Shown here: positions 18,001 through 21,000 of the stretch, in pieces
Numbering within the stretch: position 1 is the stretch's first letter
Layout: the number at the start of each line of letters is the position of its first letter
DNA from: Candidatus Calescibacterium sp.
GTDB taxonomy: Bacteria > Calescibacteriota > Calescibacteriia > Calescibacteriales > Calescibacteriaceae
NCBI GenBank assembly: GCA_032249135.1
Contig: JAVVGL010000015.1
Coordinates: 1-53,531, forward strand
Reading direction: 5' to 3'
DNA: 53,531 nt
Position numbers: made by a program

Positions 18001-21000
18001 GGTTTCCCGAATGAATTTTTTACTCCGTTGGAGGTGAGGAAAGAATTTTTAAAGAGAGGTTGGAGGAAAGTTGTAGGATTTCAGACAAGAAACGCTCCAC
18101 ATAGGGGACACGAGTTCATTCAAAAATGTGCTCTTGAATTAGTAGACGGACTTTTTATAAATCCTCTTGTAGGAGAAACAAAATCAGATGATGTACCATC
18201 TGATAAAGTTGTTGAAACTTATAGAGTTTTGATAGAAAAGTATTATAACAAAAGTAGGGTTTTTCTTGGAATTCTTCCATCTGCTATGAGATATGGAGGA
18301 CCTCGCGAAGCTGTCCATCATGCTATAATGAGGAAAAATTATGGTTGTACTCATTTTATCATAGGAAGGGATCACGCCGGATACAAGAATTTTTACGGAC
18401 CATACGATGCTCATAAAATTTTTGAGAAGATAGATCCAAAGGCTCTTGGAATCACACCCCTATTTTTTGATAATGCTTTCTGGTGTAATATTTGTGGGGA
18501 GATGACAACTGAAAAGGCTTGTCCGCATCCGGCAGAAAGTAGAATCTCAATTTCTGGAACTCAGGCAAGAGCTATGCTATCTCGTGGTGAAAAGCCACCT
18601 TCTGAGTTTATGAGACCGGAGGTTGCAGAAATCCTTATAAATTTTTACTCTCAAAAAACTCAAAGTTAGTTTTGGAAATGAGATTTGATTTAAACAAAAT
18701 TTTCACTGTGAAAATTTACAAATATTTTGAGGGATAGAGCATAAATCTTTTTTTATTTCTATATTAGTGGAATTTATCTCCCCAGTGATTTCAGTTGGGC
18801 ACACAGGAGTTATTATTTGAAATTCTCCTCCTGACTCTTTTGTTTCGCTTCTTGCTCTAATATCAACATTATATGTAGATTTTTCAATACATCCGCTGTA
18901 AGATGTTATTTCACCTTTTATTGTTATATCAATTGTGTTTGTATTTTCTTTTTGATAGTATGCGTATTCAAAGTTTTGTAAATCTAAATCTATTTTATCT
19001 CCAAACTCCATATTTATTTTGCCCACTTTTTCTTGCTCTGTTCTTAATGCATATCCACCGTAAAATTTGATAGATGATATATTTGAGAGAGAAAGTGAAA
19101 AATATTGTGATAGTTCATCTTCTTTTCTTATGTGAAGTGACATATTTTCAAATACAAATCTGCCTCCTTTTAGTGATATTTCCCCTGAAAGTTCTATATT
19201 AATTTGAGGATAAGATATGGATGAGATTTTGATGCTTAGTATATATTTTGAAATTTGAGGTTGTATTTCTATCTGTCCTTTTAGTAAAAACGAATCTCCT
19301 ATTTTGCATTTATCGTAAATTTTTTTATTATTTTCTTTTTTCATACAATCTGCTCCCTCTATTGAGATTATTGCTTCAATGATGTCTTGAATATTTTTTA
19401 TAAAGTATGCTAATGTTGGAATAGAGTGGGCTATTCTTGCTATGATTTCTTCTGAAATAGATTTTTCATTCTTCTTAGAGCAATTCAAAGTGTTTGATAT
19501 AAAGAAAAGAGTGAAAAAGAGAACAATTTTGAATACGTATTTAAAAGATTCTTTTTTCATCGCATAAGAATATAGTTCTCTTTTTTGGTATTTTGGAATT
19601 TCGGATATCATTTTTATTTTAGCTGTTTTTGATGTTTTGTTATCCTTTAATCTTTTGTTGCGTATTTTGTTATGAAAGATGTATCAAGTATTAACTCTGT
19701 GAGAGTTTTTGGAGAAGCTATTTTGATGTCATCGGGGACAGATTGTCCTGTTGTAAAGAATGCGATGGGTTTTTCTAAAAATGTTCCAATATTTATTATG
19801 GTTCCCGGAAATGAAGTTTCATCTACTTTTGTGAATATCAGATAATCAATTCCTGTTTCTGAAAACCCTCTTATGACATTTATCATTTCCTCTTCCCTTT
19901 GAGATGTAGATATGAGCAAGCAAGTCTCTACTTTTGCCTTACTTCCTATTTCTTTTATCAGAGAAGAAATCTTTTTTATATTTTTTGTATCGTATTGGCT
20001 TTTTCCCATTGTATCAACTACTATAAACTGAAATTTTGTAAGTTCATTCCATATTTTTTTGATTTCATCTTCCGTTGCAGCTACAAATAAAGGTATTCCC
20101 ATAATATCTGCATATTTTTTTATTTGTTCTACTGAGCCAATCCTATATCTATCTGTTCCTAAAAGTGCAACTTTTTTGAACCCGGACATAAGATAAAGAG
20201 CAGCTATTTTTGCAGCAGTTGTAGTTTTGCCTACTCCTGTTGGACCAATAAGCACTAAAAACTTTGATTCTCCTCTGAAAACATCTATCAGAGGATTTTT
20301 AAATAGTAGGTAATTTTGAATGACTTTTGCAAATGATACTTGATCAATTTTACCTTCTTTTGATATTATATCTTCTGTTATAGATAATGCAATGTTCCTC
20401 TGAACTCCTTTTGATATAAGTTTTTTGAATAGAAAAAGACCGATTTTGGGAAGCTTTATTTCAGGTGCTGAAATCTCCTTTTTTGACATGAATTCAACAT
20501 AGACTTTGAGGTTATAAAACTCTCTCTTTATCTCCTCAATTTTTTTTGATATTTCCGAAAGTAGTTCTATTTCGTATCCTTTATTTTCATAACCTTTATT
20601 TTCATATCTTTCTTGTTTTTCTTTTTCTTCTTTTTTTTCTTTTTCACTTTTTACTTCCAAATGTTTTTCTTGGAAAGCTAAATTCTTTGCTTCTATTACT
20701 TTTTGATTTTCTGAAATTTCTTTTCTTTTTTCCTCGTGATTTTGTGCTAATATACCCACTATTACCTCATAATACTTTTCTCCACCTATTTGTTTCTCTT
20801 CGTATCCAATCAGGATACCATTCCCGCCTGTATCCTCCTTTATTTTCTCAAAGATTTTGAGTAAGTTTTTCCCGGAAAATTTTTTTATTACAGAGTATTT
20901 CACAAATATAATTATACCATTTTTTGTATGCTCTATATAATGAGTTTACTGAGTGATTCATCTAGTCCGCTTGATATAAATTCGAGGCTTTTTGAACGAA

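Follow-up and report, generated by a model that had tools for sequence, protein, structure and literature searches.

Background

In the bacteria in which it has been studied, FlhF is a signal recognition particle (SRP)-type GTPase that forms a GTP-dependent homodimer, labels the place where the flagellum is assembled and is inactivated by FlhG, a MinD-like ATPase. The genes ffh and ftsY belong to universal single-copy marker sets. Ribosome-binding tails are found on the mitochondrial insertase Oxa1 and at the C-terminus of the second YidC of Streptococcus mutans. An excerpt of PMC7844537 describes the SRP as conserved across all life forms and also reports that Escherichia coli survives deletion of ffh through slowed translation initiation, which widens the time window for targeting. 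SRP-free strains of S. mutans, which has a second YidC paralogue, are on record (excerpt of PMC8546722), and most mitochondria have lost the bacterial SRP (excerpt of PMC8321541). Among bacteria, Leptospira and Dehalococcoides, and apparently SAR86, are listed as being without Ffh, FtsY and SRP RNA, and a Leptospira-specific gene is said to be inserted beside secY (Fouts et al. 2016, excerpt of PMC4758666).

The window analysed here (53,531 nucleotides of contig JAVVGL010000015.1 from the Candidatus Calescibacterium sp. assembly GCA_032249135.1) contains a gene for an SRP-type GTPase. Natural loss of the SRP is already documented, and the phylum to which this genome belongs is most likely a new lineage of that rare but known sort: as in Leptospira and Dehalococcoides, and apparently SAR86, the three SRP components are missing together while Sec is kept, in a free-living organism with a non-reduced genome. 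Unlike the loss of the Leptospira kind, that in Calescibacterium extends to every sampled genome of a small phylum (seven genomes in three genera), drafts only. Among the papers searched, none paired Calescibacterium-type names with the signal recognition particle, and Colman 2016 nowhere mentions SRP, ffh or ftsY.

Methods

The genome under study (G000) is a draft of 2.10 Mb with 34% G+C. Its phylum consists of one family with seven genomes from three genera, all of them drafts in 20–150 contigs, 82–87% complete and none closed. All searches for absent components were performed on binned assemblies, with the six genomes other than G000 accessed via a prefiltered genome search and the unfiltered searches carried out on G000. 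For the unfiltered protein search, a local Ffh HMM built from 26 sequences was run with hmmsearch --max against the 43,708 six-frame ORFs of G000. SRP RNA was searched for with nhmmer --max using a sequence-only profile of 28 SRP RNAs, all of which were detected in a leave-one-out control (28/28). Islands rich in G+C and at least 70 nt long were collected outside tRNA and rRNA genes (n = 233) and, of these, outside long ORFs (n = 9), and 20 regions of G000 were compared with all of Rfam at E ≤ 1. YidC tails, i.e., the residues past the Pfam domain, were compared for 30 of 39 YidC matches, with the genomes G033 and G039 left out and G003 giving no match.

Results

Judged by its sequence, the product of the GTPase gene (Table 1) is an ordinary flagellar FlhF, as the initial annotation had proposed. 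The NCBIfam model for FlhF (TIGR03499) aligned over its full length (ORF residues 6–300 against model positions 3–286 of 286) with 170.5 bits (E 7.7e-50), 3.65 bits short of its cut-off of 174.15, whereas the NCBIfam models for ftsY (TIGR00064) and ffh gave 81.8 bits (cut-off 260.7) and 77.1 bits (cut-off 473.2); all three scores agree exactly with those given earlier. The best PDB relatives, over the G domain, were the FlhF chains 2px0 (131.5 bits) and 8r9r (97.1 bits), and chains of SRP54, Ffh and FtsY scored at most 58 bits, so that by NCBIfam models and PDB scores alike FlhF is a closer relative of the ORF than Ffh or FtsY is. With its best solved relatives, the FlhF of Bacillus subtilis (2px0, 2px3, 3syn) and that of 8r9r, it shares the G4 motif TKxDET, but it differs from them in a G3 motif reading DTMGK instead of DTAGR, in the slightly low TIGR03499 score and in its location outside an flhA-flhF-flhG operon.

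Table 1 Features in the window and the FlhG-like gene on contig C3 of the same genome
Feature	Position	Strand	Description
trmD, standing alone	16517..17359	+	PF01746, 164.3 bits
flhF ORF	19647..20903	-	GTG start, 418 aa; sole SRP-family GTPase in the G000 assembly
SRP54-type G domain of FlhF (residues 215–406)	19686..20261	-	PF00448, 126.4 bits (Pfam), 128.4 bits (genome search)
N-terminal part of FlhF (residues 1–214)	20262..20903	-	covered by the FlhF model from residue 6
FlhG-like gene	C3:31896-32669		MinD-family scores; N-terminal DQAEKLR

The SRP54 G domain was the only Pfam match on the FlhF ORF, and neither an Ffh M domain nor a match to SRP54_N was found in the G000 protein. The motifs of the G domain (GPTGVGKTTT, DRYR, DTMGKS, the G4 motif TKVDET, and GQSVPDD) were invariant across eight FlhF sequences, two of them from other lineages. 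The N-terminal part runs from a conserved start, MKYSVIKKFSGKNLLKIFEKIKED, through a variable Lys/Glu-rich stretch and a helical region into the G domain; this pattern of conserved start and variable middle holds for FlhF across the phylum. G000 also encodes an FlhG-like partner whose N-terminal motif we take to be the FlhG activator helix, and an FlhA (816 bits, above the TIGR01398 cut-off) from a stand-alone gene; FlhA was detected in all seven genomes of the phylum. The identification as FlhF is thus upheld by the full-length model match, the two best PDB relatives, the TKVDET motif, the FlhG-like partner and FlhA. The gene lies outside any flhA-flhF-flhG operon, which is the usual though not a defining location, and outside any other flagellar operon. 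It is flanked by a 302-aa ORF without a family and by a divergently oriented LplA/B-like gene, and a neighbourhood with LplA/B-like and isochorismatase-family genes is kept in two of the three genera.

No protein with the properties of Ffh, i.e., a Met-rich M domain for binding of the signal sequence and SRP RNA, was found in G000 with PF02978 or the local HMM. The G-domain model PF00448 had one match above its cut-off, FlhF at 128.4 bits, with the runner-up at 21.8 bits, and both the M-domain model PF02978 and the SRP54_N model PF02881, for the helical bundle that goes with the NG domain of FtsY, were without a match. In the unfiltered search, FlhF was picked up by the local Ffh HMM with 84.0 bits, over the G domain only (HMM positions 95–298 of 441), and the next ORF scored 21.7 bits; the single match reported before from a 16-sequence HMM (83.1 bits) persists with the larger model. 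A regular expression for SRP-GTPase motifs likewise matched the FlhF ORF alone. On the RNA side, none of 59 candidates scored with Infernal, to which this scoring was confined, was accepted as RF00169, RF01854 had no match in G000, and the nhmmer profile gave no match at E ≤ 10. The comparison of 20 regions with Rfam recovered RNase P RNA and 5S rRNA and no SRP RNA, none of the nine non-coding G+C-rich islands was SRP-RNA-like, and the folds of the remaining islands consisted of repeats or low complexity without an SRP hairpin. Stable RNAs were otherwise well represented, with 45 tRNAs covering all 20 amino acids, tmRNA, 5S rRNA, RNase P RNA (195 bits) and, on contig C27, a long G+C-rich block flanking tRNA-Ala and tRNA-Ile that we read as the rRNA operon. 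The claim that this genome is without Ffh, FtsY and SRP RNA accordingly holds in filtered and unfiltered protein searches and in RNA and motif searches.

The same absence had been asserted for the six other genomes of the family, and it recurred in each of our searches. None of the seven genomes had a match above cut-off to the ffh model, whose best matches (71–83 bits) were FlhF, or to TIGR00064, with scores of 81.8–88.4 bits against a cut-off of 260.7; PF02978 was above cut-off in 0/7, and RF00169 and RF01854 were each found in 0/7. Of 35 genome tests for five control genes (FlhF, YidC, SecY, FlhA, SecA), 34 were positive. Even if each gene were missed at a rate of 18%, 21 independent misses would have a probability of about 2e-16, and with 21 of 21 targets missed and 34 of 35 controls found, random incompleteness does not explain the result. 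The absence of all three components from the phylum is most likely real. Concordance of protein and RNA calls in 40 of 41 genomes was confirmed as well. The statement that each family genome has one FlhF-like GTPase needs an exception for G002, which has a second FlhF-like gene, located on a different contig within an flhA-flhF-flhG cluster; FlhA too occurs twice in this genome, whose contamination is put at 5%. Weak M-domain matches occurred in two genomes: that in G006 (15.1 bits) was rejected on inspection by eye, as it falls in a 528-aa ORF resembling citramalate/isopropylmalate synthase, and that in G005 (12.1 bits) lies in a frame of similar size.

In relatives, trmD is part of an ffh-rpsP-khpA-rimM-trmD cluster, which in G000 is dispersed and without ffh. 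The neighbours of Ffh at 29 loci of relatives match G000 rpsP (on contig C5, 23), khpA (on C7, 17) and trmD (17), and rpsP itself stands in the middle of its contig, flanked by a thioesterase gene and lpxC. Since the cluster is scattered over three different contigs, no clean "empty site" of ffh can be demonstrated in G000.

Triple-negative results for 5 of 34 unrelated, near-complete genomes had raised the concern that the searches share a blind spot, and this concern is not borne out. One of the five is a spirochaete genome in one contig (G033), in which FlhF, encoded in flhA-flhF-flhG, is the only SRP-type GTPase; it matches the Calescibacterium lineage in having retained FlhF alone. Three of the five have no SRP-type GTPase at all, and at the DTAGR-coding sites inspected in the five genomes (17 of 26) none encoded an SRP GTPase. 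In total, 12 of 41 mostly deep-branching genomes sampled were SRP-negative. In the spirochaete phylum this applied to 15 of 61 genomes, with the negatives following family lines, and the search for the Ffh M domain was negative in four (Leptospira-like) genomes that carry LipL32. Taken with the absence published for Leptospira (excerpt of PMC4758666), the one-contig G033 and the Leptospira-like negatives make the 5/34 support for real absence. The five other little-known lineages and the several spirochaete families that were negative suggest that SRP loss is commoner than one would gather from the single remark in print; these negatives make a systematic survey appear worthwhile.

SecY and SecA were found in 7/7 genomes of the phylum and YidC in 6/7, being absent from G003; G000 also has trigger factor and TatC. 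With Ffh, FtsY and SRP RNA gone and Sec and YidC kept, the phylum has the composition expected of naturally SRP-less bacteria. Other proteins of the lineage likewise score under equivalog cut-offs, for instance trigger factor with 148.5 bits against 180.2. Compensation by a ribosome-binding YidC tail was considered and rejected: tails were 1–4 residues long in nine SRP-negative genomes and 3–31 residues in 21 SRP-positive ones, and phylum genomes have a single YidC with a tail of 1–4 residues. SecA carries an insertion of about 50 residues in its first nucleotide-binding domain in all seven genomes; as a general correlate of SRP loss this insertion was discarded, being carried by 0/5 of the other negative genomes. 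A conserved lipoprotein gene without a family is fused to the end of yidC, and several conserved ORFs beside yidC and secA are also without a family.

Discussion

We consider it probable, on the basis of the sequence searches, that a functional flagellar FlhF is the only SRP-type GTPase of this lineage and that Ffh, FtsY and the SRP RNA have truly been lost. The principal competitor is that the SRP genes exist and were missed on unassembled or unbinned contigs of incomplete bins. Completeness is 82–87% throughout, the searches were confined to binned contigs, and the lack of YidC in G003 indicates that single essential genes can drop from bins. Nevertheless, three unlinked genes are gone from seven of seven differently named records in which the controls were nearly always found, G000 retains rRNA, 5S, RNase P RNA, tmRNA and a tRNA set covering all 20 amino acids, rpsP, beside which ffh usually stands, is mid-contig and has no ffh next to it, and a one-contig genome of another lineage is in the identical state, all of which makes missed genes improbable. 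Nor do we expect, other than as a very improbable outcome, an SRP-like system that has diverged or been replaced beyond what models of Ffh, FtsY and SRP RNA recognise. Such a system would fit the scores of FlhF and trigger factor below their equivalog cut-offs and the conserved family-less ORFs beside yidC and secA, but the same two proteins were still found at E 1e-43 or better, the SRP54 G-domain model separated FlhF (128 bits) from the next match (21.8 bits), the M- and N-domain models stayed blank, the motif expression returned FlhF only, and no unexplained non-coding G+C-rich island had a suitable form.

Scarcely credible is a takeover in which FlhF performs part of the role of SRP or FtsY and targets more than flagellar proteins. 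FlhF is the last SRP-family GTPase remaining, its gene sits outside any flagellar operon in a neighbourhood kept in two of three genera, and purifying selection acts on it, every G motif being invariant. The isolated position loses weight, however, because flhA stands alone too, i.e., flagellar genes are scattered in G000; moreover, the genome encodes an FlhG-type partner that carries the activator motif, FlhF has neither an M domain nor another signal-binding module, and the three of five other SRP-negative genomes without any SRP-type GTPase imply that FlhF is dispensable for life without SRP. A broader proposition, that the loss is ancient, phylum-wide and one of many independent losses, with an SRP-independent co-translational targeting route widespread in bacteria, seems doubtful to us; within it, a lineage-specific change in the remaining machinery might have occurred, for which the SecA insertion and the lipoprotein gene fused to yidC are candidates.

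Under the favoured reading of true loss with a flagellar FlhF, the disappearance of SRP and FtsY would predate the split of the three genera, and membrane proteins would reach SecYEG/YidC without SRP, by analogy with other organisms. Possible routes are SecA and a direct ribosome-translocon or mRNA-level localisation, or a long time window through slow translation as in the E. coli ffh-deletion suppressors; FlhF would presumably have no part in SRP-independent targeting. Life without SRP while SecYEG and YidC remain is shared with those suppressors and with SRP-free S. mutans. In both, however, the loss is engineered or conditional and comes with growth defects, unlike the state of the phylum, and S. 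mutans has its second YidC paralogue where the Calescibacterium phylum has one YidC with a short tail. Mitochondria resemble the phylum in having lost Ffh and FtsY by evolution while keeping a YidC-family insertase, but they are organelles that make a handful of membrane proteins, whereas the phylum consists of free-living cells with genomes of about 2 Mb and no ribosome-binding tail.

A phylum of free-living, flagellated bacteria with genomes of about 2 Mb and no SRP offers an independent natural experiment on membrane-protein targeting, and it indicates that SRP-family GTPases can persist solely in a flagellar role. Loss of the SRP also supplies a specific reason why completeness judged by marker genes may remain at around 82–87% for this lineage.

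A trace of ffh was found in one genome of the phylum. G004 holds an Ffh-like fragment of 45 aa that is interrupted by an internal stop and lies beside crcB-DUF190 genes, and its recovery at 30 bits, broken as it is, attests to the sensitivity of the ffh search. Around DUF190 relatives (≤70% identity) at 80 metagenome loci, no Ffh was present within the available flanks. From this fragment it follows that ffh DNA was at some time present in the Calescibacterium lineage or came into it; should the fragment be ancestral, SRP loss would be of later date and would have taken place in more than one event.

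Search for SRP components in the source genome

The source genome (G000) is a draft of 2,097,337 bases in 51 contigs, of which the window is number 15 (34% G+C, no N; 87.48% complete, 0.46% contaminated). In the prefiltered genome search, PF00448 gave one match above its cut-off, flhF, with a MinD-like protein as runner-up (21.8 bits); the Ffh M domain, SRP54_N, and RF01854 had no match, and RF00169 was not found among 59 scored candidates. As this search tool prefilters, unfiltered searches were also run. A local Ffh HMM built from 26 Ffh proteins of relatives' loci was searched (--max, no filters) against all 43,708 six-frame ORFs of at least 25 residues and returned flhF alone, at 84.0 bits and over G-domain positions 95–298 of 441, the runner-up scoring 21.7 bits. 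An SRP RNA profile from 28 SRP RNAs of relatives (nhmmer --max) had zero matches in G000 at E ≤ 10; in a leave-one-out control with E-values scaled to a search space of G000 size, 28/28 omitted SRP RNAs were recovered in their own loci. A regular expression (P-loop...DTxG...TKxD) matched flhF as the single ORF, and the two DTAGR peptides of G000 sit in large repeat proteins. Prefiltered and unfiltered searches thus concur with the initial annotation that Ffh, FtsY, and SRP RNA are missing from G000, and the single matches of PF00448, the Ffh HMM, and the regular expression bear out that flhF is its sole SRP-family GTPase.

There is no general shortage of RNA genes in the assembly: aragorn detected a tmRNA and 45 tRNAs covering all 20 amino acids, and on contig 27 tRNA-Ala and tRNA-Ile are flanked by a long block rich in G+C, read as an rRNA operon. 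When 20 G+C-rich regions were scanned against Rfam, RNase P RNA (195 bits) and 5S rRNA (71.5 bits) came up, but none of the Rfam families of SRP RNA was matched. The other non-coding G+C islands comprised two families of repeats and one stretch rich in (GGA)n. An element of about 170 nt occurs both at the end of contig C14 and at the start of C42; it has no Rfam match at E ≤ 1 and, being repeated, interrupted the assembly. A structured element of about 100 nt, present twice, had fold z-scores of −4.8 and −6.1 and no Rfam match; a terminator-like hairpin comes after one of the copies.

Coordinates of features in the window, elsewhere in G000, and in two related genomes (G002, G004)
Feature	Location	Strand	Remarks
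flhF	window 19647-20903	-	418-codon ORF, GTG start
302-aa ORF	window 18703-19611	-	directly downstream of flhF; no Pfam or NCBIfam match
LplA/B-like gene and isochorismatase-family gene			upstream of flhF, divergent
Parts of split ffh-rpsP-khpA-rimM-trmD cluster	window 16517-17359; G000 C5:69849-70121; G000 C7:17590-17874		
MinD-family protein	G000 C3:31896-32669		begins with DQAEKLR
SecA insertion	G000 C3:100773-100922	-	about 50 residues, within secA; TIGR00963 position 133
Trigger factor	G000 C1:13985-15094	-	full length; 148.5 bits, cut-off 180.2
467-aa lipoprotein-like ORF	G000 C1:40633-42036	+	begins 4 bases after yidC; no Pfam family
G+C-rich element, ~170 nt	G000 C14:57110-57277; C42:4-166	opposite orientations	
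Structured G+C-rich element, ~100 nt	G000 C5:17540-17613; C18:1-82	-; +	two copies
Second flhA-flhF-flhG cluster	G002 C82:2666-6484		different sequences
Ffh-like fragment	G004 C56:21535-21669		45 residues, one internal stop; ffh model, 30 bits

Identity and neighbourhood of flhF

Among NCBIfam models, FlhF (TIGR03499) ranked top for the window ORF with 170.5 bits (E 7.7e-50; residues 6–300 against model positions 3–286 of 286), compared to 81.8 bits for ftsY (cut-off 260.7) and 77.1 bits for ffh (cut-off 473.2). The FlhF score is, as had been pointed out, 3.7 bits below the cut-off of 174.15. The sole Pfam domain was an SRP54-type G domain (residues 215–406, 126.4 bits). The top two solved structures were FlhF chains (2px0, 131.5 bits; 8r9r, 97.1 bits), and SRP54, Ffh, and FtsY chains all scored ≤58 bits. 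In an alignment of the G000 gene with five orthologues of the phylum plus a pair of FlhF sequences of other lineages, the motifs G1 (GPTGVGKTTT), G2 (DRYR), G3 (DTxGKS), G4 (TKxDET), and G5 (GQxVPxD) were invariant, as was the FlhF-type N-terminus. G000 also encodes a flagellar FlhA above the equivalog cut-off, and a MinD-family protein whose DQAEKLR start is presumably the FlhG helix activating FlhF. Score ranking, structures, invariant motifs, and these partners identify the gene as an ordinary FlhF-family member, as initially annotated, and one that is probably functional. FlhF identity among the three genera of the phylum is only 60–66%, and the closest named relatives by FlhF (55% identity) carry the name Candidatus Calescibacterium.

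Inspection of neighbouring genes placed flhF outside any flagellar operon; flhA is likewise solitary, with a transporter gene on one side and pgsA on the other, so that flagellar genes are simply scattered in G000. The arrangement of flhF with the divergent LplA/B-like and isochorismatase-family genes is kept in two of the three genera. No cross-genus match to the downstream 302-aa ORF was found in the locus comparison; G002 has an ORF with a signal-peptide-like start that resembles it in size and position. The ffh-rpsP-khpA-rimM-trmD cluster, present in most of 29 Ffh loci of relatives, is distributed over three contigs in G000, whose gene order is strongly scrambled.

Absence across the phylum

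A phylum-rank search covered the same seven genomes as the family rank (three genera, 82–87% complete, 20–150 contigs). None of the seven exceeded the cut-off for the ffh model (matches of 71–83 bits were all the FlhF orthologue), the ftsY model (top matches FlhF, 80–88 bits), or the Ffh M domain (weak matches in G006, 15.1 bits, and G005, 12.1 bits), and RF00169 and RF01854 were each found in 0/7. The 15.1-bit match, the one of the two that was inspected, was rejected, lying in a 528-aa ORF that by eye resembles citramalate/isopropylmalate synthases. Controls by the same method were positive in 34 of 35 genome tests (FlhF, SecY, FlhA, and SecA 7/7 each, YidC 6/7). Gaps should be independent between bins, since these carry different record names. 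Even at a per-gene miss rate of 18%, the probability of missing all 21 of 21 is ~2e-16, which excludes random incompleteness and leaves only a systematic cause. The claim that all six other genomes of the family lack Ffh, FtsY, and SRP RNA was thus upheld; that of one FlhF-like GTPase per genome held save for G002, which has two. Its second FlhF is unrelated and lies within a flhA-flhF-flhG cluster that brings a second FlhA too, which fits the 5% contamination rating of G002. The G002 loci concerned are C82:2666-6484 and contig C48.

A systematic cause could be a blind spot shared by the searches, as the initial annotation feared from five negatives among 34 genomes of other families. These five (G014, G020, G030, G033, G039; 93–100% complete) lack Ffh and SRP RNA alike, and the 29 Ffh-positive genomes have SRP RNA in all but G024 (75 of 442 candidates scored there), the single exception to a protein–RNA concordance that was reproduced at 40/41 genomes. 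PF00448 identified no SRP-type GTPase in G014, G020, and G039, only a 23.9-bit P-loop match in G030, and a single gene in G033, which is FlhF within flhA-flhF-flhG. A search of the five genomes for DTAGR-coding DNA, which involves no profile prefilter, yielded 26 sites; 16 regions spanning 17 sites were examined, the other nine being further copies of one 14-base G033 repeat. No examined region matched the Ffh HMM better than E 0.29, and two were ribosomal protein L31 genes by sequence. G033 is one contig of 2,430,673 bases, with an FlhF that a locus in the complete chromosome of Brevinematales bacterium NS matches at 100% identity. In its phylum (spirochaete), the Ffh M domain occurs in 46 of 61 genomes, with the 15 negatives falling into families of 0/3, 0/2, 0/4, 0/2, 0/1, 0/2, and 0/1. 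The 0/4 family (4.4–4.7 Mb) is Leptospira-like, as LipL32 is present in every genome. The negatives thereby match Fouts et al. (PMC4758666), who report that Leptospira has no Ffh, FtsY, or SRP RNA and also name Dehalococcoides and, apparently, SAR86 as missing the system; the search therefore reproduces a published true absence. The negatives are thus no blind spot, and they show the SRP-less state to be viable in closed genomes. Among the genomes sampled, it is not unusual for Ffh and SRP RNA to be missing together (5/34, plus the spirochaete families). One-contig genomes among the negatives are G033 and G056.

The observation of the initial annotation is hence confirmed and its interpretation supported; in our assessment, SRP loss in the phylum is likely real. 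At the genome level, the state belongs with that of naturally SRP-less bacteria already on record, PMC4758666 being the only published case found in broader literature searches. New are the lineage and the scale, i.e., all genomes sampled from a small phylum (seven drafts). PMC4791363, which describes the group under the name Calescamantes from thermal springs, does not mention SRP, ffh, or ftsY; no report of SRP loss in the Calescibacterium group was found in the main texts of the openly available articles searched. SRP loss may be commoner in little-studied lineages than the literature suggests.

An Ffh-like fragment in G004

The Ffh-like fragment of G004 lies in a 67-codon frame and, read through its stop, aligns with Ffh HMM positions 115–159 (27.8 bits), i.e., the region after the P-loop with an ...EQLK.L.EQ... 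segment typical of Ffh; it was not reported by the FtsY model at E ≤ 0.001. The DNA around it is non-coding (about 360 bases) and bounded by a crcB-DUF190 pair on one side and a tRNA-Arg gene on the other. Relative to G003 (flanks 90–91% identical), G004 carries 1.14 kb extra exactly there, made up of the fragment and the crcB and DUF190 genes. Pair and fragment are both missing from G000, G005 has a crcB-DUF190 pair at another location (69% identity) without the fragment, and none of 80 metagenome loci that carry relatives of DUF190 (≤70% identity) has Ffh nearby. The fragment is not a gene. It could be a relic or a piece of imported DNA, and we lean towards import, because a neutral relic is unlikely to have stayed this Ffh-like since the ancestor of three genera as diverged as their FlhF indicates. 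The match also means that the ffh search detects even 45 broken residues.

Remaining targeting machinery

Sec components are retained in the phylum (SecY and SecA 7/7, YidC 6/7), and G000 has TatC and a divergent trigger factor. As trigger factor and FlhF both score below them, curated equivalog cut-offs tend to be too strict for proteins of this deep lineage. The best available model for targeting without SRP would be slowed translation initiation, which, according to PMC7844537, widens the targeting time window and makes ffh deletable in E. coli. Alternatively, as proposed by Fouts et al. (PMC4758666), a narrow cell may hold ribosomes close to the membrane. A YidC2/Oxa1-type ribosome-binding tail was considered and rejected, as YidC stops 1–4 residues past the Pfam domain in the nine SRP-negative genomes examined.

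The ORF after yidC keeps its position in 6/6 phylum genomes with a yidC locus and is fast-evolving (126 bits within the genus, 80–87 bits between genera); its lipoprotein-type signal peptide argues against a role in cytoplasmic targeting. The SecA insertion, in a loop after ...FLGL.VG... in the first nucleotide-binding domain, is present in 7/7 phylum genomes and absent in the other five SRP-negative genomes, and is thus a lineage mark and no general correlate of SRP loss. One SRP-positive genome, G018, shows a break at this SecA site as well, though a shorter one.
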